Source: Gemmata obscuriglobus
GTDB lineage: Bacteria; Planctomycetota; Planctomycetia; Gemmatales; Gemmataceae
Assembly (NCBI RefSeq): GCF_008065095.1
Contig: NZ_CP042911.1
Coordinates: 930,001 to 962,000, forward strand
Length of the DNA stretch: 32,000 bases
Reading direction: 5' to 3'
Position 1 is the first letter of the stretch; each line of letters starts with the position of its first letter. Both the position numbers and the translations under genes were made by a program. The notes under the pieces were generated by a model. It had not been told where the DNA came from. It was given only the letters and a program-made list of their open reading frames with translations, and ran no database searches. This document shows positions 2,386 to 14,016 of this stretch, one piece after another.

Positions 2386-2700
2386 TTACTTGATTCCGCC
2401 CTTCACCCGCGACACCGACACCGTAACCGGTGCGTTCGTCGGGGGCTTGCTGTCGGCGCTCAGCTCGTTGGTGAGCTTGCTGGCCGCTTCGCGGGCCGTC
2501 GCGTCGGTCACGTCGCCCGGGGTCACCAGCGCCGTCGGCAGCGACGGCGGGGTCGGCTTCACGGCCGGCGGCGGGGTCGGGTCGGTCTTGGGCGCCGCGG
2601 CCTTGGGCGCGGGCAAATGGTCGGCGAGCGGGCCGACGGGTTTGATCGAGTGGCAGCCGACGAGGGCCGCAATCCCCAGCGTGAAGAGCAGCGTTCTCAC
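2386..2700 (-). CDS. Small lipoprotein (104 aa)
   Basis: A GTG start at 2700 overlaps the upstream stop as GTGA. GGAGG lies 7 nt upstream. The N-terminus (M)RTLLFTLGIAALVGCHS has a lipobox (LVGC). This is the C-terminal part of track ORF 2386..3654, whose upstream portion is Arg/Gly-rich junk. Confidence 0.6.
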   Translation of the reverse strand: MRTLLFTLGIAALVGCHSIKPVGPLADHLPAPKAAAPKTDPTPPPAVKPTPPSLPTALVTPGDVTDATAREAASKLTNELSADSKPPTNAPVTVSVSRVKGGIK

Positions 2701-3278
2701 GGCTTCACCTCCCGGACGGGTGCATCGGGCACGAGCGGGGCGGCCGACGCGGTGCCGGTCACCGGCACCGGCGCGGCGGGCGCCACCAGCTTCGCGGCCG
2801 CGACCTTCGGGTCGAGTTCCTTTTCGGGCGCCAGGTCCAGCACGGCGCCCGACCCGGTCGGGAGCGGCGCCCGCGCGGCCTTCGGCGCGCCGAGCGCCGC
2901 GGTCCGCGCCTCGTACACCGCCTTCGCCTGCCGCTCCAACTCGTCCGCCTGCCGCATGAGTTCGTCGTCGTTCTTGTCGAACGCGGTCTGGCGGATCTTC
3001 AGGCACACCTCCATCCGCCGCAGCAGCGCGTCGGTCTCGGCCTGCACGGCGGCCCGCACCACGTCGGGCGCGAGCGTGGCCGTGCCCGGCGCCCGGGCCG
3101 GCGTCACCGGCCCGCTGCGGACCGTCGGCCCGGCCGGCTTCGGCCCGCTCACGAACAGCTTCTTGTACCACGGCCGCGCGTCGGCCGGCGGCCCGGAATC
3201 GGCCGCGCTGACCGGCGCCGCGGCGCCCGCCACGCCCCCGAGCGCGACGGCAACCACCCAGGCCCGAAATCGGCTCAT
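2697..3278 (-). CDS. Secreted coiled-coil-like hypothetical protein (193 aa)
   Basis: Track ORF 2697..3290. I prefer the ATG at 3278, which has a G-rich SD (ggggggaacc) just upstream; the alternative start is 3290. Signal-peptide-like MSRFRAWVVAVALGGVAGAAAPVSAAD. The charged helical middle reads ETDALLRRMEVCLKIRQTAFDKNDDELMRQADELERQAKAVYEA. Translationally coupled to the downstream lipoprotein. Confidence 0.6.
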   Translation of the reverse strand: MSRFRAWVVAVALGGVAGAAAPVSAADSGPPADARPWYKKLFVSGPKPAGPTVRSGPVTPARAPGTATLAPDVVRAAVQAETDALLRRMEVCLKIRQTAFDKNDDELMRQADELERQAKAVYEARTAALGAPKAARAPLPTGSGAVLDLAPEKELDPKVAAAKLVAPAAPVPVTGTASAAPLVPDAPVREVKP

Positions 3279-3589
3279 GGTTCCCCCCATGACTCGGCCG
3301 CCGGCGAGCCGGCGCCGAGCGCCGCGACCGCCGCGCGTCCCCCTTTAGTCGGCGCGGCCCCCGCGGGTCGTATGTGCTGTTAAGTGAGCTGCGTATGCCA
3401 GCGGGAACCGGGCGTGTAAAGCCCGACTCAGAGCGGCGTGTGATTGGCACCACCGGGCGGGAGGCCGGCGGCCTTCCCGGGTGGCGGGTGCCTTGGCGCG
3501 TGCATACAGAAACCTGTGAGCAACGACGGGGGCGCCCGTTTCGTTCCCACACGCCCCACGTTCTCCACAACCCGCGGGCGAGACCGGTT

Positions 3590-4606
3590 ATGGTGTTTGC
3601 GGATCCACCCTCGGCCGCACTGCAGCAGGCGCTACAGTTGCTCGCGGAGGGCAAGAGCGAGGACGCCGAGACGGCGGTAAAGAAGGCCGCGCAGTCGGCG
3701 AAGGCGAAGCACGGGTCCGGGTCGCCGCCGCTCGCCGCCGCCTACGCCGACATCGCCCAGCTGCACCTGAAGATGGGTCAGTACGGGAAGGCCGCGGTCG
3801 AGTTCCAGCACGCGTGCAAGGCGCCGCTCCCGGCCGACCCCGCGGGCCGGCAGGCGCGGCTCGGGTTCATGTTCGGGTTCGCCGAGGCCCTGGTCGCGCT
3901 GGGCCGGTTCGAGGAGGCCGAGAAGGTCCACCGGCAGTGCGGCGCGTTCGCGCGGAACCTGTTCGGCGCGAACGCGCCGCGGGCCGTCGCGACCAACGTC
4001 CCGCTGGCCGACGGGCTCTTGAAGGCGGGCAAGGCGGACGAGGCGCTCGCCGCCGCTCAGGAGGCTTACGACGCGCTCTGGCACCTCGGCGACGCGCTCA
4101 TCGCGTTCGCGGTCCCGGTGCGGGCCGAAGCGCTGAAGGCCGCGGGCCGGGCCGACAACCCGTTCGCCGACCTCGCCGACCTGCCCGACGAGTTGACCCA
4201 CCAAGCCGTTGCCGGGGTGCTGACGCGGGCCGGGAGCGGCGACCCGGTTCACGTTCGCGCGGTGCTGGCCGACCTGCTCGCGTTCGCGGACCAGAAGTAC
4301 GGCGACGGCCACGCCGTCATGTGCGACGTGCTGGCCGCCGTCGCGCACCACGAGGCCCGGCAGGGCGACCGCGCCGACGCGACCGTCCGCCGGGCTGCCG
4401 TGCGCCGGTCCGTGTGGGCGTTCGTGGTGCGCCGGCTCCCGGGCGGGCTGCTGGCGAACCTGGAGATCGGGTTCGAGCCGAACGGCACGATCCACCTCGT
4501 GCCGCACGTGTCCCGCGAGCCCAGCGTTCGCGAGGCCGAGCAGCTCGAAGCCGTTCTGACCGAGGCCGTCGACGACCTGTACTCGCGCCCCGCGCTGCCG
4601 GCGTAG
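3590..4606 (+). CDS. TPR-like helical-repeat protein (338 aa)
   Basis: In-frame ATG at 3590 within track ORF 3374..4606; the upstream part has non-protein-like composition. Helical repeat segments include AAAYADIAQLHLKMGQYGKAAVEFQHAC and FAEALVALGRFEEAEKVHRQC. No specific family recognised. Confidence 0.55.
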   Translation: MVFADPPSAALQQALQLLAEGKSEDAETAVKKAAQSAKAKHGSGSPPLAAAYADIAQLHLKMGQYGKAAVEFQHACKAPLPADPAGRQARLGFMFGFAEALVALGRFEEAEKVHRQCGAFARNLFGANAPRAVATNVPLADGLLKAGKADEALAAAQEAYDALWHLGDALIAFAVPVRAEALKAAGRADNPFADLADLPDELTHQAVAGVLTRAGSGDPVHVRAVLADLLAFADQKYGDGHAVMCDVLAAVAHHEARQGDRADATVRRAAVRRSVWAFVVRRLPGGLLANLEIGFEPNGTIHLVPHVSREPSVREAEQLEAVLTEAVDDLYSRPALPA

Positions 4607-4653
4607 CGGCCGGTAGCAACCGCTCCAAGAACGCTGCCTTCACCGAGGTGCCC

Positions 4654-6279
4654 ATGCGACCGGTTCTTTCCTTCGCGGCGGTCCTCGGCCTCGCGGCGCT
4701 CGCGGGCGCGCAAGACCCCAAGGCGCCGGCCCCGCGGCGGCTCCTGTTCATCCAGGCGAGCGGGTACCTGTACGTGAACCCGCTCGCCGCTCCGCCGGAC
4801 GGGGCCGGTCCGCCGCGCGCCGCCGAGCAGTTCGCTGCGGCCCTCCGTGTTCCCGTCGCAAAGGGCAACAACCAGCTCTTCGTCCTGACCGACACGTCCG
4901 CCGCCAGCCCGCACCCGACCCGGGCCGCTGTCGTGAGCGTACTCGACAGCTTCTGCGCCACGACGCGCGAACAGGACCGCGCCGTGATCGTTTTCAGTGG
5001 CCACGCCATCGAACGGGCCGGCGGCGCGTTCTTCGTCCCGCTCGACGGCGACCCGGACGCGCCGGCGACGCTCGTCACGGTCGCGGACGTGTACGCCCGG
5101 CTTGACAAGCTCAAGGCGGCGCAGAAGGTCGTGATCTGGGACGTGTGCCGGCACAACCCGGACCGGGTGCGCGGGCGCCGCGACGGCGGGCCGATGTCCG
5201 AGGGCCTGTTCAAGGCGCTGACGGCGGTGCCGCCGGGCGTTCAGGTGTTGGTGAGCTGTTCGCCGGGCGAGCGCGGACTGGAGTACGTTCCAACCAGGCT
5301 GCAAACGGGTAGCGCGTACCTCGACGCGCTGCGTCTGACGGCCGCGGACGAGTTCGCGCGACTCGGCGCGGCCGACCTCATCCCGGTGGACGCCTGGAAC
5401 CAGGGCGCCGCAAAGACGCTCGTGGCTGCGGCGGTGGCGACGGGGTTGCGCGGCGCGAAGCAAACGCCGGTCGCGGTCGGGGCCGCGCCCAAAGCGCCGG
5501 CGCCGTTCGACCCGAAGGCGGCACCGGCCCGGCGGTTCGACCTGCCCGAGCCGCCGAAGGCGCCGGCGGCCGACGTGAAAGCGGTGCTCGACGAACTCGC
5601 GCTGCCGCCGCTGTTCGAGGCCGACCGGTCGCAGGTGGGTGCGGTCCCGTTCGCCCCGGACGCGCTGAAGGGCGCCGCGCCGGACGTGTCGGTTGAAGAG
5701 GTGCTCAAGGCCGCCGAGAAGTACCCGTTGCGGGCGGCGGTGCTTCGCTCGCTCCAGGCGGTGCGCGAGGTGTGGCCGCGGGGTGGGAAGGAAGCGAAGG
5801 GCGTGACCCCGCTCGCCGCCCCGGTCGCGGAGCGGACCAAGAAGGCGATCAGCGACGCCCAACAGCTGCTGGCCGAGGCGGTGCTGAGGTTGGAGGCCGA
5901 ACTGGAGGCGCTCCGAGCGGTAGAGGGGCACCGGGCGAAGGAGACGCGGCGGTGGCAGGCCCACTACGACCTCACCCTGGCGGAGGTGCGGCTGCGGCTG
6001 GTGGTGCTGAACGAGTACAACCTGCTGCTGGCGCGGGTGCGAACGGAGACGCTGCCGGACCTGCCCCCCGGCGCGCCGGGGTGGCGGCTGACCGCCGGCG
6101 ACAAGCTCACGTCGCGCAAGGAGATGAAGGACCTGTTGGCGGCGGCACAGGAAGGGTTCGAGAAGGTGGCGGCCGACCACAAGGGGACGCCGTGGGAGGT
6201 GCTCGCGCGGCGGTCGCGGGCCACCGTGCCCGGGCTGCGCTGGGAACCGCTCCCGGCCCCGAAGACAACGGATCAGTAA
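4654..6279 (+). CDS. Exported caspase-like (peptidase C14-like) domain protein with long helical C-terminal region (541 aa)
   Basis: ATG at 4654 within track ORF 3814..6279; the upstream 280 codons are Arg/Gly/Pro junk. Signal peptide MRPVLSFAAVLGLAALAGAQD. The caspase-family layout is RRLLFIQASGY, then AVIVFSGHA (His codon 5002-5004), then FFVPLDGD, then KVVIWDVCRHNP (Cys codon 5146-5148), then VLVSCSPGERGLEY. This resembles the bacterial orthocaspase pattern (FSGHG ... DACRNNP ... ATxPG). Recognised from memory of the family, not from a search. Confidence 0.6.
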   Translation: MRPVLSFAAVLGLAALAGAQDPKAPAPRRLLFIQASGYLYVNPLAAPPDGAGPPRAAEQFAAALRVPVAKGNNQLFVLTDTSAASPHPTRAAVVSVLDSFCATTREQDRAVIVFSGHAIERAGGAFFVPLDGDPDAPATLVTVADVYARLDKLKAAQKVVIWDVCRHNPDRVRGRRDGGPMSEGLFKALTAVPPGVQVLVSCSPGERGLEYVPTRLQTGSAYLDALRLTAADEFARLGAADLIPVDAWNQGAAKTLVAAAVATGLRGAKQTPVAVGAAPKAPAPFDPKAAPARRFDLPEPPKAPAADVKAVLDELALPPLFEADRSQVGAVPFAPDALKGAAPDVSVEEVLKAAEKYPLRAAVLRSLQAVREVWPRGGKEAKGVTPLAAPVAERTKKAISDAQQLLAEAVLRLEAELEALRAVEGHRAKETRRWQAHYDLTLAEVRLRLVVLNEYNLLLARVRTETLPDLPPGAPGWRLTAGDKLTSRKEMKDLLAAAQEGFEKVAADHKGTPWEVLARRSRATVPGLRWEPLPAPKTTDQ

Positions 6280-6309
6280 ACGCTGTCGCCGGAAGGTAAG
6301 GAGCGGGGT

Positions 6310-6789
6310 ATGAACCCGGCGTGGCGCACGGGTACGGTGGCGGCGCTGTGCCGTCGGATGCTGGACACCCGCGAGTTCGACGCGCTGCCGATCCTCGCGG
6401 ACGCGCTCCAGGACGCCGGGTGTACGGACCCGGAAATACTCACCTCGTGCCAGGACGGGACGCTGAGCCGGGCGCGGGCCGAGCGGTTGGTGAACCTGAT
6501 GTACTCGGACGAGACCGCCGCCGCGGTGCGCTGGCTCGAGCAGTTCGTCCGCGACATCGATCACTGCGACGCCGAGGGCAATCCGGCCGACACCTACGAG
6601 AGCGCCGTCGAGATCGGCCGTACCGGGCTCGATCAGGGGCACATCACGTTCGTGTCCATCGAAGGCGCTCACTTCTTTTGGCAGAGCGACAACAACCGGC
6701 GGGCCTTCTTCCGCAACTGGTCGCTCGTCACCGGCGTGGCGGTCCCGGACGACCAGCAGGCGCGCATCACGTTCAGTTGCACCTGCTGA
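6310..6789 (+). CDS. Short-form paralog A: N-terminal PILADALQDAGC module + variable region + FFRNWSLVTGV box, ends SCTC (159 aa)
   Basis: Track ORF 6310..6789, with aaggag 8 nt upstream of the ATG. Nt 6355-6558 match 7283-7486 with one mismatch. Confidence 0.75.
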   Translation: MNPAWRTGTVAALCRRMLDTREFDALPILADALQDAGCTDPEILTSCQDGTLSRARAERLVNLMYSDETAAAVRWLEQFVRDIDHCDAEGNPADTYESAVEIGRTGLDQGHITFVSIEGAHFFWQSDNNRRAFFRNWSLVTGVAVPDDQQARITFSCTC

Positions 6790-6899
6790 TCGCGCAGTCG
6801 TTCCTGGCTCGCGCGGGCCGGCCGCGCACATTGCGACAGGCTCGCGGCTCAGGTAACCTACTCACCACACCACGAGCGCCCGGACCCGCGGAGGGACGC

Positions 6900-7241
6900 A
6901 TGACTTTGCCGATCGGCAGACTGATCGACGGCGACGAGGGCCGCGATGCGGTCCACGTTGCCATCGCGCCCACGACGGCCCCGTGCGAGTTGCAGCCGGG
7001 CCAGCACGTCGACCCGCGCGGGCACCCGGAAGGACCGGGCGTCGTGCCGGTGGGGATCGTTGACCCGTTCCTGCGCGAACCGGTCCCCGCCGGCCGGCGG
7101 TTCTGGCTGTTCCTGTACCCCAACACCGTAACCACCCTGCGGCACGAGTGGTCGCACCCGGCGTACCCTACCAACTCCCCCGCCGAAGTGAACCAGGCGA
7201 TTCAGGACTATCTCACCCAGAGAAAGAGGGCCCAGGCATGA
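6900..7241 (+). CDS. Conserved-looking small hypothetical protein (113 aa)
   Basis: In-frame ATG at 6900 of track ORF 6321..7241, with ggaggga upstream. MTLPIGRLIDGDEGRDAVHVAIAPTTAPCELQPGQHV...GIVDPFLREPVPAGRRFWLFLYPNTVTTLRHEWSHPAY. The stop overlaps the next start as ATGA (7238-7241). Confidence 0.6.
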   Translation: MTLPIGRLIDGDEGRDAVHVAIAPTTAPCELQPGQHVDPRGHPEGPGVVPVGIVDPFLREPVPAGRRFWLFLYPNTVTTLRHEWSHPAYPTNSPAEVNQAIQDYLTQRKRAQA

Positions 7242-7747
7242 ACCCGGAGTGGCGGACCGGGACGGTGCTGGCGCTGTGCCGGCGGATGCTGGACACCCGC
7301 GAGTTCGACGCGCTGCCGATCCTCGCGGACGCGCTCCAGGACGCCGGGTGTACGGACCCGGAAATACTCACCTCGTGCCAGGACGGGACGCTGAGCCGGG
7401 CGCGGGCCGAGCGGTTGGTGAACCTGATGTACTCGGACGAGACCGCCGCTGCGGTGCGCTGGCTCGAGCAGTTCGTCCGCGACATCAACTACAACGACTA
7501 CAAGGACGAGAACGACGAGGTCGGTACGCCGAGCGACACCAACCCGCACACCTACGAGTACGCCATTGAGGCCGGGCGGAGCGGCCTCGAAGAGGGGGAC
7601 ATGTACTTCGGCTCCGACGCCGGGGCCGACTTCTTCCTGGAGAGCGACGACAACATGCGGACGTTCTTCCGCAACTGGTCGCTCGTCACCGGCGTCCCGG
7701 TTTCGGACGAGGACCAGGGCGACATTGATGTCCGTTGCGGCTGCTGA
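7238..7747 (+). CDS. Short-form paralog B: same N-terminal module, acidic variable region, FFRNWSLVTGV box, ends RCGC (169 aa)
   Basis: ATG at 7238 inside track ORF 7148..7747. MNPEWRTGTVLALCRRMLDTREFDALPILADALQDAGCTDPEILTSCQDG... 4-nt ATGA overlap with the upstream gene. Confidence 0.75.
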   Translation: MNPEWRTGTVLALCRRMLDTREFDALPILADALQDAGCTDPEILTSCQDGTLSRARAERLVNLMYSDETAAAVRWLEQFVRDINYNDYKDENDEVGTPSDTNPHTYEYAIEAGRSGLEEGDMYFGSDAGADFFLESDDNMRTFFRNWSLVTGVPVSDEDQGDIDVRCGC

Positions 7748-7769
7748 TGGTTTTGGTGTTGAGTGTGGT

Positions 7770-7857
7770 CCGCTCGCTCCGCGAGCGGTCACGAAGCCGC
7801 GCGTCGTAACACCCAAAGCCGTCCGACGCTCGGAGCACCGCTCGCTCCGCGAGCGGG
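7770..7857. repeat. Two copies of an 8-bp-stem hairpin core (ccgctcgc tcc gcgagcgg), REP-like; possible bidirectional terminators
   Basis: The same 19-nt palindromic core occurs at 7770-7788 and 7839-7857, between convergent genes ending at 7747 (+) and 7906 (-). Confidence 0.45.
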
Positions 7858-7905
7858 CCACCCTGAAGACCCGGACCGCACAACCGGAATCAACTCCGTT
7901 CGGCG

Positions 7906-8592
7906 TCACTTGGCCGGCGCCACGTCGGCGGTCTGCGCCGCGCTCCACTGCTCCACGTTGCCGATCGGGAACCAGTAGTCCGCCGCGACCACGTGGAAGC
8001 CCCCGGCCGCCGCGAGCTGGCTCACCGCGTCCGTGATCTCGTACTCGCCCCGCGGCGAGAGCGGCAGCGTCAGGTCGAAGACGCGGCGCGGGAACACGTA
8101 GCCGCCGATGTTCGCCAACTGCGGCGGGGTCAGGCCCTCGGGCTTCTCTTCGATGTGGTGCAGCGTGCCGTCCGGGTTGCGGAACAGAATCCCGTAGTCC
8201 TTCGGGGTGCCCACCGGGTGCGCGAGAATGCCCATCGGCACCTGCGCGAGGTGCGCCAGGTCGGCGCGGCCGATGAGGTCGTCCCCGTTGAGGACCATCA
8301 CCCGGTCCGATTGCACCGCCCCCTTGCAGCTCATGAGGGCGTCGCCGGTGCCGCGGGGCTCGGTCTGCCGGACGGTCGCCCAGTTCTTCACGTGCGGCTG
8401 CCGCGCGAGGTACTCCTCGATCTGCTCGCCCAGGTAGTTGACGACCACCACCAGCCGGTCGACGGGCGGCAGCGCGCCGATGATCCAGTCGAGGATGGGG
8501 CGGCCCTGGACGGGCAGCAGGGGCTTGGGAACCGTCTCGGTGTGCGGGCGCAGGCGCGTGCCTTTTCCGGCGGCGAGGATGATGGCGTCCAA
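7906..8592 (-). CDS. Sugar-phosphate nucleotidyltransferase (NTP_transferase family)
   Basis: Track ORF with a TTG start. (M)DAIILAAGKGTRLRPHTETVPKPLLPV is the classic GxGTRL nucleotidyltransferase motif, followed by ...EPRGTGDAL...VLNGDD.... Confidence 0.85.
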   Translation of the reverse strand: MDAIILAAGKGTRLRPHTETVPKPLLPVQGRPILDWIIGALPPVDRLVVVVNYLGEQIEEYLARQPHVKNWATVRQTEPRGTGDALMSCKGAVQSDRVMVLNGDDLIGRADLAHLAQVPMGILAHPVGTPKDYGILFRNPDGTLHHIEEKPEGLTPPQLANIGGYVFPRRVFDLTLPLSPRGEYEITDAVSQLAAAGGFHVVAADYWFPIGNVEQWSAAQTADVAPAK

Positions 8593-11625: not shown

Positions 11626-11768
11626 CCGGAACAGAGAAGAGGCAGAACTCTTGCAACATATTGTCCGGGCGTCCGGCATCTGTCAACACCAACCGCGCGA
11701 AAAACGTCGCGGCACCGTTAGACGCCCGGCGGCGCCAAGCCCGAAATCCTGACGACACAACCGTTTAC

Positions 11769-12149
11769 TCAATGGCCGTGGCCGCCGCTCATCTCCGGCC
11801 GCCTCACCGGACAACCAGACAATGGTTCGTTACTGGGCGCCCGCAGGGTAGCCGCGTGCGGGTGCTGCTCGACGTTGCCCGCTTCGTTTTCGCCGTGGGC
11901 CGACACCTTGAACGCCCTGTACCAGTTCGACTTCCCACTCGGCGAAGTTATGCGCCCCACCCGTGCCGCGCGGCCGTTCACGACCACCCGGGTCACGACC
12001 ACGGTGTCGGTCGTCGTGACCCGCACCCGCACGACGGCGGTCACGATGAAGAACGTGGCCGGGCTCCATAACCGCGTGTACGGATAACGCCCGACATTCC
12101 CAGTGCCGAGCGACAATATCTCTCGACAAGTGGATATTGCGCGACGCAT
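11769..12149 (-). CDS. Hypothetical small protein, start uncertain (maximal ORF given; GTG at 12044 is also possible)
   Basis: Strong G/C third-position periodicity from about 12070 down to 11769. The predicted protein is beta-strand-rich, ...FFIVTAVVRVRVTTTDTVVVTRVVVNGRAARVG...EMSGGHGH. An AT-rich putative promoter lies upstream and a minus-strand terminator downstream. Caveat: the + strand ORF 11875..12087 shares the same third positions, so periodicity alone cannot assign the strand. Confidence 0.35.
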   Translation of the reverse strand: MRRAISTCREILSLGTGNVGRYPYTRLWSPATFFIVTAVVRVRVTTTDTVVVTRVVVNGRAARVGRITSPSGKSNWYRAFKVSAHGENEAGNVEQHPHAATLRAPSNEPLSGCPVRRPEMSGGHGH

Positions 12150-12321
12150 CTATTATCTTTGTGGAATCGCGGCTAACAAGCCGAACCGCGCGCGCATTCG
12201 TTGTCCCAGTAGGGTCACATGTTGCTCAGCGCGTTCGGCGGGTGACGCCGAGCCGCCCGTCGCATTCGCCCCTGTTTCGCGGTAGGATGCCGGTTCCGCC
12301 ACCGAGCCCCAGAGACGCGCC

Positions 12322-13341
12322 GTGTCTAAAGCCAAGAAGCCGATGCTGGCGAAGCTGTCGGACCTGCAACCGGGCCATTACGTCGACTGCTTCGTGCAAC
12401 TCGCCGAGAAGAGCCGCGGCACCACCCAGCAGGGCAAGCCGTACATCGCGTGCAAGTACCGCGACGCGCGGCGCACCGTCGGGTCGGTGCCGATCTGGGA
12501 GGACTCGCCCCTGTTCGCCGACGCGCTGGACTGGCAGGCCGGGCAGTTCTTCAAGGTGCGGGCCACCTACACCGAGCACGAGAAGTACGGCCCGCAGCTC
12601 GACATCGAGCGGATGCGTCCGGTCAACGAGGCCGACCGGGCCGACGGGTTCAGCGAACTGGACTTCGTGGAGCGGTCGCGGTTCGACTCCGAGGAGATGT
12701 TCGCCGACCTGACGGCGCTGGTGCGGACCGAGATCACAGACGCCCCGCTGCGGGCGCTGGTGCTCGCGCTGTTGGACGCCAACGCCGCGGGGCTGAAGGC
12801 GGTCCCGGCCTCGACGCGGCACTTCTACCCGTTCGCCGGCGGGTGGCTCGAGCACACGCTCGCGGTGGCCCGCTCGTGCGCGTGGCTCGCCGGCCAGTAC
12901 GCCGCCCGGTTCCCCGAACTGAACCCGCCGCTGAACCGCGGGCTGGTGGTGGCGGCGGCGGCGCTCCACGACATCGGCCGGGTGCGCGGGGTGGACATGC
13001 CCCCCGGGCAACCGGGGCGCCCTAGCGTGCCGGGCGAACTGTTCGGTCACGTGTTCCTCGGCTACGAGATGATCCGCACGGCGGCCGCGGGCGTGCCCGA
13101 CCTCGCCCCGGAACTGCTCGACCTGCTGCTGCACTGCGTGGTCGCGCACCCGCGGGCGCCGGAGTGGGGCACGTCGCGCCCGCCGTGCATCCCCGAGGTG
13201 CTGATCCTGCACCACGCCGACGAACTGGACGGGCGGTTCGAGATGTACGCCCGGTGCCTGACACGCGACACCGCCGACGGCCCGTTCACGAACCGCGACC
13301 CAGTGCTCGGCCGCCTGCTGCTGAAGGCCCGCAAGGTGTGA
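12322..13341 (+). CDS. YhaM-like 3-prime-5-prime exoribonuclease-type protein (OB-fold + HD domain)
   Basis: 339 aa, GTG start. The N-terminal OB-like region is FVQLAEKSRGTTQQGKPYIACKYRDARRTV. The HD-domain signatures are WLEHTLAVA ... AAALHDIGR ... LILHHADELD. Confidence 0.8.
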   Translation: MSKAKKPMLAKLSDLQPGHYVDCFVQLAEKSRGTTQQGKPYIACKYRDARRTVGSVPIWEDSPLFADALDWQAGQFFKVRATYTEHEKYGPQLDIERMRPVNEADRADGFSELDFVERSRFDSEEMFADLTALVRTEITDAPLRALVLALLDANAAGLKAVPASTRHFYPFAGGWLEHTLAVARSCAWLAGQYAARFPELNPPLNRGLVVAAAALHDIGRVRGVDMPPGQPGRPSVPGELFGHVFLGYEMIRTAAAGVPDLAPELLDLLLHCVVAHPRAPEWGTSRPPCIPEVLILHHADELDGRFEMYARCLTRDTADGPFTNRDPVLGRLLLKARKV

Positions 13342-13368
13342 CGTGAAACCGTGTCCGAGGAACGCGAG

Positions 13369-14016
13369 ATGACGGAGGCGGAGTGGCTCGCCGCAACCGA
13401 CCCGACGCCGATGCTGGAGTTCCTTCGGGGCACAGCCAGCGCCCGGCAGTTGCGGCTGTTCGGCTGTGCGGCGGTCCGCGCCGTTTGGTCTCAGTTGGCT
13501 GAAGAGCTTCCGAATGCAGTGGCGGTTGCCGAGGAATATGCCGATGGGACGGTTTCAAAAGCCGCCTTGCGAAGGGCGAGGCACATCCTGCGGGACAAAA
13601 GAGACGAACTGGAGGCGGCGGGCCTGAATGAAAGCCCGCGTTGGAACATTTACTGGCTCGCTGAGACGGTTGCCACGATCAACGCTTATGATTCTGTCGT
13701 TGCCGAACTGGATCGACTCGGCTCAGACTCGCCGCAACTGGTGGCGCCCGACTGGCCGGTGCTTAGCGATCGCTTCCGCGACGTCTTCGGCAATCCCTTT
13801 CGCTCTATCGCGGTAGCCCGGGAATGGCTCACCTCGGACGTTCGCGCCCTGGCCGAAGGCATTTACGCCGAGAGAGCCTTTGACGGCCTCCCGATTCTTG
13901 CAGATGCACTTCAAGAAGCCGGCTGCGACAGTGAGGACCTTTTGAACCACCTGCGCGGCGAAGGGCCGCACGTACGGGGCTGCTGGGCGCTGGATCTGGT
14001 GTTGGGTAAATCGTAG
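13369..14016 (+). CDS. Long-form paralog 1: C-terminal PILADALQEAGC module, ends DLVLGKS (215 aa)
   Basis: ATG at 13369; the track starts at the GTG at 13351. MTEAEWLAATDPTPMLEFLRG...FGNPFRSIAVAREWLTSDVRALAEGIYAERAFDGLPILADALQEAGCDSEDLLNHLRGEGPHVRGCWALDLVLGKS. It visibly uses more A/T-ending codons than its neighbours. Confidence 0.8.
   Translation: MTEAEWLAATDPTPMLEFLRGTASARQLRLFGCAAVRAVWSQLAEELPNAVAVAEEYADGTVSKAALRRARHILRDKRDELEAAGLNESPRWNIYWLAETVATINAYDSVVAELDRLGSDSPQLVAPDWPVLSDRFRDVFGNPFRSIAVAREWLTSDVRALAEGIYAERAFDGLPILADALQEAGCDSEDLLNHLRGEGPHVRGCWALDLVLGKS

Follow-up and report, generated by a model that had tools for sequence, protein, structure and literature searches.

Five genes lying close together on one strand of Gemmata obscuriglobus DNA raise the question of whether they encode a single system or have come to lie side by side. 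They were studied in a stretch of 32,000 nucleotides (nt), referred to here as the window, whose positions are used throughout except where the locus of a relative is named. All five are on the plus strand and encode a TPR helical-repeat protein of 338 amino acids (aa) (g1, 3590-4606), an exported C14 caspase-fold protein of 541 aa (g2, 4654-6279) and three smaller proteins, namely g3 (paralog A, 159 aa, 6310-6789), g4 (113 aa, 6900-7241) and g5 (paralog B, 169 aa, 7238-7747). The first-pass annotation had taken them for one five-gene module. We consider it likely, with a probability of about 0.8, that two independent same-strand units form a mosaic here and that the second of them originated through gene fission. 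The first unit, g1-g2, would be an ancestral Gemmataceae pair made up of a cytoplasmic TPR protein and an exported caspase-like protease, and the second, g3-g4-g5, a later insertion in the G. obscuriglobus/G. algarum lineage derived from the phage protein family phrog_11912.

The distribution of the genes among relatives was followed by tblastn, for which the five proteins and their flanking genes served as queries, in a set of 27 loci with g2 homologues and four with g4 homologues. g1 and g2 are adjacent in nine Gemmataceae loci (L014, L016-L020 and L022-L024), belonging to Gemmata, Frigoriglobus and other Gemmataceae, with g2 identities of 49-94%. Among the loci searched, g3-g5 accompany this pair solely in G. 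algarum JC717 and JC673 (L014 and L016), and the pair occurs without g3-g5 in seven related loci, three of which keep the same downstream gene. In L017, L018 and L023 there is no g3-g5, yet the flanking nucleoside triphosphate (NTP)-transferase and PPK genes are retained. The site is occupied differently in each of these: in Gemmata sp. IIL30 (L017) only 51 nt separate the stop codon of g2 from the convergent NTP-transferase stop, in L023 the interval from the g2 orthologue to the NTP-transferase gene holds a sigma-70 region-4-like fragment (2494-2640, plus strand), and in L018 the same place is taken by a WD40-repeat gene (11700-12557, minus strand). These different contents at one site mark positions 6280-7905 of the window, a segment of about 1.6 kb that holds g3, the g3-g4 spacer, g4, g5 and a pair of palindromes, as a lineage-specific insertion at a variable spot. 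The site between g2 and the NTP-transferase gene (7906-8592 on the minus strand, convergent with g5) behaves as a local gene-gain hotspot.

Overlapping g4-like/g5-like pairs are found without g1-g2 in at least four other contexts, prophages included. Two of these contexts are non-prophage chromosomal DNA, where the pair lies between housekeeping genes (L007/L008) or follows a PIN-domain toxin-antitoxin-like pair at a distance of 22 nt (L015); a further overlapping pair is present in L010, and those of L011-L013 lie in prophage- or phage-like loci together with YqaJ, ERF and terminase genes. Conservation of the gene neighbourhood, which had been put forward as a check on the five-gene module, is, among the loci searched, limited to G. 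algarum JC673 and JC717. With g1-g2 alone in seven loci and g4-g5 alone in at least four contexts, the single module failed the co-occurrence test, and the likeness to a conflict or immunity locus that had been drawn for the five genes as one system fails with it.

Some observations weigh against so clean a division into two units. Only 30 nt separate g2 from g3, a Shine-Dalgarno-like GGAAGGTAAGGAG precedes g3, and no terminator-like site lies between the genes, so that g3-g5 may well use the g1-g2 promoter; on our proposal they would probably be transcribed by read-through from g1-g2, and the two units may be coupled in their regulation in this lineage. The adjacency of g1 and g2 is itself conserved only within a clade whose flanks are largely syntenic, and a functional link between these two genes is therefore no more than moderately supported. 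In addition, the more distant g2 paralogs have no adjoining TPR gene.

The nature of the inserted unit is indicated by profile comparisons, which show that a single family of phage proteins is divided between g4, which supplies one half, and the C-terminal parts of g3 and g5, which supply the other; this relationship was overlooked in the earlier annotation. g4 matches phrog_11912 over profile positions 17-118 of 226 (E=2.4e-24) and carries the motifs RDAVHVA, GIVDPFL and LRHEWSHP, which correspond to RDAxH, GIVDPF and RHxWxHP in the family. g3 and g5 match positions 129-226 of the same profile weakly (hmmscan E=0.055 and 0.14), and hhalign places the g3/g5 family on the fused family over the C-domain with 99% probability (E=4e-18). 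A tblastn search with g4 returned 66 phage records, among them N4-like Schitoviridae, jumbo, Sinorhizobium phiM12-like and Caulobacter phages, and the matched phage proteins, of about 230 aa, contain both halves in one chain. In the members of phrog_11912 and phrog_17232 (gp057 of Erwinia phage vB_EamP-S6, phiM12 gene 201 and gp248 of Caulobacter phage CcrColossus) the N-domain is equivalent to g4 and the C-domain to the C-halves of g3 and g5. All invariant motifs are common to both, including the terminal C-x-C, which appears as FFTCAC at the end of S6 gp057, FFTCSC in phiM12_201, ITFSCTC in g3 and IDVRCGC in g5.

The chromosomal genes depart from this phage pattern in several respects. Two overlapping genes, g4 and g5, stand here in place of the single polypeptide of the phages, with g4 as the N-terminal beta-barrel half. 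A helical module of about 65 aa, of the PILADALQDAGC type, precedes the C-domain in g3 and g5 (in g5 the module spans aa 1-65 and the C-domain aa 66-169), and the C-half gene is duplicated, g3 being an extra copy without an N-half gene of its own. The genes also lie on a bacterial chromosome, outside any recognisable prophage. What is new here is that a known phage family occurs in a variant shaped by fission, insertion and duplication.

The family itself is large. In an exhaustive hidden Markov model (HMM) search its sequences fell into at least 3,868 clusters at 50% identity, of which 2,065 had E-values below 1e-30, and nearly all are single-architecture proteins of 170-200 aa; further fused homologues (P0037 and P0041) were found in phage-like contigs. 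Twelve columns are invariant, in P0037 numbering D17, A18, H20, G53, D56, P57, P75, H83, W85, H87, C168 and C170. An AlphaFold2 (AF2) model of P0037 has a predicted local distance difference test score (pLDDT) of 82.6 and a predicted template modelling score (pTM) of 0.49, and consists of a confident small beta-barrel core followed by three helices; the regions of the invariant motifs, residues 81-100 and the C-terminal tail, are its low-confidence parts. The phage versions adjoin early, replication and nucleotide-metabolism genes, which encode helicases, Metallophos, NT5C and MazG-like proteins. A weak likeness of the barrel to head-decoration or DUF2190 barrels (Foldseek E>0.01) was rejected on this ground as a guide to function, as the phage genes lie in early and replication regions and not in structural modules.

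Other searches returned little on this family. Scans of g3, g4 and g5 against Pfam and NCBIfam gave nothing useful, the family having no Pfam model, and a Pfam scan of ten longer members yielded no informative domain fusions. Profiles of the fused family and of the g5 family found only chance matches among PDB sequences, such as the Strep-tag WSHPQF, and we found no relevant literature on S6 gp057, TIGR02996 or the 'repeat-companion domain'. Two unusual members were seen along the way. P0292, a metagenomic protein of 404 aa, has two tandem N-domains and a C-domain without the terminal C-x-C. P0259, of 176 aa, is a full-length g5-like protein with both module and C-domain (44% identity) from a 39-kb contig labelled 'Candidatus Parcubacteria bacterium', an unexpected host, for which misbinning or a contig of phage origin may be responsible.

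The order in which insertion and fission occurred is suggested by intermediate architectures. Three metagenomic proteins (P0342, P0358 and P0362) are single chains in which a module of the type WRTxxV...ALPILADALE lies between the N- and C-domains; severing a chain of this kind at the junction of N-domain and module would give exactly the arrangement of g4 and g5. In the L010 and L011 pairs the C-half partner carries a different module, TIGR02996 (43.5 and 34.9 bits against a cut-off of 29.05), which indicates that one and the same linker has taken up planctomycete helical modules of more than one kind. TIGR02996 ('repeat-companion') is a domain family expanded in Gemmata; in planctomycete-type loci it is, like the module of g5, a short helical module fused N-terminal to the C-domain. 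g3 and g5 have no match to TIGR02996 in NCBIfam at E<=1. That the PILADALQDAGC module might be a homologue of it was considered and discarded, hhalign having failed to align the two module types.

A module of the g5 type, about 50 aa long and containing WLTSDVRALAEGIYAERAFDGLPILADALQEAGC, was also seen near the C terminus of a 221-aa open reading frame (ORF) elsewhere in the window (13351-14016, plus strand; hhalign probability 98%), which implies that the module is common to otherwise unrelated Gemmata proteins. The GC content at third codon positions (GC3) of this ORF is 0.70, as against 0.91-0.97 in its neighbours.

Fission at the same interdomain linker has happened independently in Achromobacter phage JWDelta (L049, 2926-3608). 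Its adjacent genes JJJA_0026 (110 aa, ending in RHVWEHPDFPEGT) and JJJA_0027 (115 aa, ending in FFSCSC) divide the protein as g4 and g5 do, but they belong to a phage genome and show neither an inserted helical module nor a duplication. From the recurrence of fission, the adjacency that is kept and the overlap of start and stop codons, we infer that the products of the split genes act together in a complex.

Each of the five genes evolves under purifying selection. Their coordinates, the gaps of 47 nt (g1/g2), 30 nt (g2/g3) and 110 nt (g3/g4) and the ATGA overlap of g4 and g5 were reproduced as first described, and the public gene calls for G. obscuriglobus CP025958.1 contain the same five genes. 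GC3 is 0.86-0.95 across g1-g5 in the called frames (0.86-0.93 in g3-g5), and the ratio of nonsynonymous to synonymous substitution rates (dN/dS) against G. algarum is 0.14-0.29 over the five genes (0.19 for g1, 0.14 for g3, 0.17 for g4 and 0.29 for g5); both measures identify all five ORFs as genuine coding genes. By domain, dN/dS is 0.47 in the C-domain of g5 and 0.07 in that of g3. The description of the paralogs as rapidly diverging is thus mostly unsupported, only the g5 C-domain showing a raised value. Base composition was considered as a sign of foreign origin and set aside as weak evidence, since the GC content of the 6280-7905 segment is slightly lower than that of g1-g2 (0.68 against 0.73) but the GC3 of g3-g5 is host-like.

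The tandem paralogs around a small, translationally coupled gene are nevertheless real: g3 and g5 are 72% identical as proteins, and g4 is joined to g5 by the ATGA overlap. The similarity of the two paralogs is unevenly distributed. A tract of 204 nt in g3 (6355-6558, plus strand) differs from its partner in g5 (7283-7486) at a single position, and the first 255 nt of the two genes are 95.7% identical in G. obscuriglobus, as against 89-90% in G. algarum. In their 3' halves the nucleotide identity is about 74%, and each paralog, A or B, pairs with its own counterpart in the other species, so that the duplication is older than the split between the species. The uneven identity is the mark of recent gene conversion in G. 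obscuriglobus, which homogenised the 5' halves and accounts for their near-identity. A tandem duplication of g3 together with its downstream sequence was rejected, the similarity of g3 and g5 stopping at the stop codon. In Gemmata sp. JC717 (L014, 7411-8004) a 2-bp deletion was observed before the ITFSCTC end of g3, where the frame continues to 197 aa and reaches into the start of g4; g3 is intact, at 159 aa, in JC673, and the deletion may mean that g3 is dispensable or decaying, or may be an assembly error.

These observations can be arranged into a sequence of events. The ancestral phage protein was most probably one chain of about 175-230 aa, in which a linker joined an N-domain built as a small beta-barrel to a C-domain of three helices ending in F-x-C-x-C-COOH. 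A helical module, of the PILADALQDAGC type here or TIGR02996 in other lineages, entered the linker, after which the gene split between the N-domain and the module to give the ATGA-coupled g4 and g5, and the C-half gene was then duplicated to give g3. The g4 and g5 proteins may reassemble into a counterpart of the undivided phage protein, a heterodimer in which the invariant histidines of g4 (RDAxH and RHxWxHP) and the terminal C-x-C of g5 would jointly hold a metal ion, and g3 would be an alternative or partly redundant C-half partner of g4. An analogy is offered by the zinc clasp of CD4 and CD8 with Lck, an intermolecular zinc site formed by a C-x-C and a C-x-x-C. By pure analogy, a terminal C-x-C on one chain and ligand residues on the other could join g4 and g5, although the putative partner ligands are here histidines and the two systems share no homology.

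The heterodimer and its metal clasp are put forward tentatively, at somewhat less than even odds. They are weakened by the uncertain interdomain geometry of the P0037 model, to which the pTM of 0.49 refers. The Foldseek search of that model against PDB and BFVD gave nothing significant beyond the family's own JWDelta member and so offers no anchor for a function. The cellular role of g3-g5 is most likely phage-related; we favour a part in phage-host conflict, for example as a retained moron, or in takeover, with low confidence in any specific role.

Among other explanations of g3-g5, the one that survives best holds that g4 and g5 (and g3) form a domesticated phage-derived module for defence or superinfection exclusion, in which the helical module directs the heterodimer to its target in the host or the phage. 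Such a function would suit genes of phage origin that occupy variable chromosomal spots, carry lineage-specific interaction modules in the linker and, in L015, follow 22 nt behind a toxin-antitoxin-like pair. No PADLOC model corresponds to them, however: the hits in PADLOC-DB v2 were confined to a generic caspase model, matched by g2 with 20.6 bits, and HEC-01B, matched by g4 at chance level (E=0.052). There is also no recognisable effector domain, and with the phage copies lying among early, replication and nucleotide-metabolism genes, a takeover function beneficial to the phage or a metabolic role fits at least equally well; a role in defence appears unlikely.

Less likely still is the view that g3-g5 are what is left of a decaying prophage and no longer serve the host. 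Their phage origin, their isolation as a cassette with no further phage genes nearby, and the frameshift that removes the C-x-C end of g3 in JC717 are what decay might leave behind. Against this, the between-species dN/dS of g3, g4 and g5 stays at 0.14-0.29 and their GC3 of 0.86-0.93 is that of the host. At E<=1e-3 the search with g5 found 152 clusters, formed at 90% identity, most of which are full-length proteins of module and C-domain, and the search with g4 found 98, the fused phage forms included. The PILADALQDAGC module of the g3/g5 family is very strongly conserved, and the non-prophage chromosomal pairs of L007/L008 and L015 show retention.

That all five genes form one operon-encoded system, in which a protease and an adaptor accompany polymorphic small proteins as at conflict or immunity loci, is highly improbable, since the shared strand, the short gaps free of internal terminator-like hairpins, the five-gene order kept in the two G. 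algarum strains and the somewhat raised dN/dS of the g5 C-domain (0.47) stand against a co-occurrence confined to one shallow lineage (synonymous divergence of about 0.1-0.2), the many separate occurrences of g1-g2 and of g4-g5, the different inserts downstream of g2 in different genomes, the export of g2 as opposed to g3-g5, which lack signal peptides, and the absence of a PADLOC system match.

With two independent units as the preferred reading, the g1-g2 pair can be considered in its own right; it consists of protein kinds that are already annotated, a caspase family protein and a TPR protein. g1 matches TPR_12 in two stretches (E=2.5e-13, 50.4 bits against a cut-off of 30.1), which bears out its description as TPR-like. 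It resembles designed PPR and alpha-solenoid proteins in PDB, in agreement with a helical-repeat protein, and no signal peptide was found in it.

g2 matches PF00656 by a narrow margin (23.6 bits against a gathering score of 21.4, E=4.8e-5); many of its orthologues carry a precomputed PF00656 match and are named 'caspase family protein' by NCBI. The caspase domain spans about aa 27-275 and includes His117 (5002-5004, in SGHA) and Cys165 (5146-5148, in DVCR). A g2-family profile built from 35 homologues aligns these two residues with the YAGHG and LDMCRK motifs of MALT1, whose GHG and DMCR motifs carry the catalytic His/Cys dyad; this puts them at the canonical places behind strands beta3 and beta4, and His117 is invariant while Cys165 is present in 34 of the 35. 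Structure prediction, which the first-pass annotation had named as a possible refutation should a caspase fold be lacking, yielded such a fold: the AF2 model has a pLDDT of 85.1 and a pTM of 0.86, and Foldseek matches it to MALT1 (E=3e-9, probability 1.0) and also to the plant metacaspases 4 and 9, GSU0716 and legumain. The fold and its His/Cys dyad are thereby confirmed on the grounds of family match, motif alignment and model alike.

The N terminus of g2 is a Sec-type signal peptide of about aa 1-19 (4654-4710; MRPVLSFAAVLGLAALAGA followed by QDPK) with predicted cleavage between AGA and QD. The A-x-A|Q-D/E cleavage region is conserved among the orthologues, and the AF2 model shows the peptide as a detached low-confidence helix, so this part of the original description also stood. 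Behind the caspase domain lies a conserved, family-specific helical domain of about 240 aa (about aa 300-541), for which no structural match was found. In metagenome-assembled genomes of Isosphaeraceae and Planctomycetaceae (L037-L042), only this C-terminal domain (about aa 320-530) was matched, sometimes twice per locus, and it seems to be independent of the caspase part in other planctomycete families.

Longer g2 paralogs (L025, 9263-11884; L026, 9272-11614; P0163-P0171) have a zinc ribbon (CPxC…CKxCG), a Pro/Tyr/Gly-rich linker and a transmembrane (TM) helix ahead of the caspase domain, and the L025 paralog has in addition a cytochrome-like CxxCH extension at its C terminus. With the zinc ribbon and TM helix in place of the signal peptide, the caspase domain of these paralogs would lie outside the cytoplasm too, which backs the earlier suggestion that g2 acts in the envelope.

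g2 shares the caspase-hemoglobinase fold with the paracaspases, metacaspases and orthocaspases of MEROPS C14 (PF00656), such as human MALT1 and Geobacter GSU0716 (PDB 3BIJ), but its dyad motifs are SGHA and DVCR in place of GHG and D(S/C)CHS, and it adds the signal peptide (in the paralogs the Zn-ribbon/TM anchor) and the C-terminal helical domain. Most likely, judging from its sequence and model, g2 is a Sec-exported paracaspase- or metacaspase-like cysteine protease with an intact His/Cys dyad, and proteolysis in the cell envelope is its predicted function. We found no relevant literature on Gemmata caspases or planctomycete orthocaspases.

Upstream of g1 the divergent intergenic region is real as described; it extends over 299 bp (3291-3589), is the presumed promoter region of g1-g2, and is bounded on its far side by a minus-strand gene for a secreted protein of 197 aa (2697-3290). 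A scan for sigma-70 consensus promoters gave 0 matches, although such a scan is not informative for Planctomycetes, and the scan for intrinsic terminators was likewise uninformative, its terminator-like matches falling solely within coding regions. The 110-nt spacer between g3 and g4 (6790-6899, plus strand) has no significant structure (fold z = +0.49) and no terminator-like site; it is kept in G. algarum JC717 and is weakly similar to the sequence upstream of a stand-alone g4 homologue in L007. Scanning the whole window for tRNAs and Rfam families gave no hits.

Downstream, between g5 and the convergent NTP-transferase gene, the palindrome CCGCTCGCTCCGCGAGCGG is present as two exact 19-nt copies (7770-7788 and 7838-7856; chance expectation 0). 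The twin hairpins proposed at 7770-7857 thus exist as exact palindromes in a region that folds with z = -4.8, but no T tract follows either copy. They may be a bidirectional transcription stop or a palindromic repeat element. Both are conserved in G. algarum (L014, 8871-8959; L016, 13119-13207) and absent from all other fetched loci. In the second palindrome of G. algarum the 3-nt loop is inverted (TCC to GGA) and flanking pairing extends the arms to about 34 nt, the outer right arm having diverged in G. obscuriglobus; such a pattern resembles the flipping of a hairpin loop within a palindromic element.

The case shows that clustering on one strand can mimic a novel system when a lineage-specific insertion lies behind a conserved gene pair. 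For the phage family, the fused protein, the insertion of a module, fission, and duplication with gene conversion make up an evolutionary series that predicts a g4-g5 complex, and eight invariant residues (D17, H20, D56, H83, W85, H87, C168 and C170) point to the family's functional core. It is distinctly unlikely that these proteins amount to a new class of phage protein, in which the halves are joined by an intermolecular His/Cys metal site, the targeting module and the exchangeable g3 and g5 retarget one N-half, and the host keeps the genes for phage-host conflict; if true, a large and widespread phage family without a Pfam model would gain a testable mechanism. For the biology of the planctomycetes, the conserved extracytoplasmic caspase-fold family of Gemmataceae, with its unique C-terminal domain and membrane-anchored paralogs, offers a tractable entry to proteolysis in the envelope.

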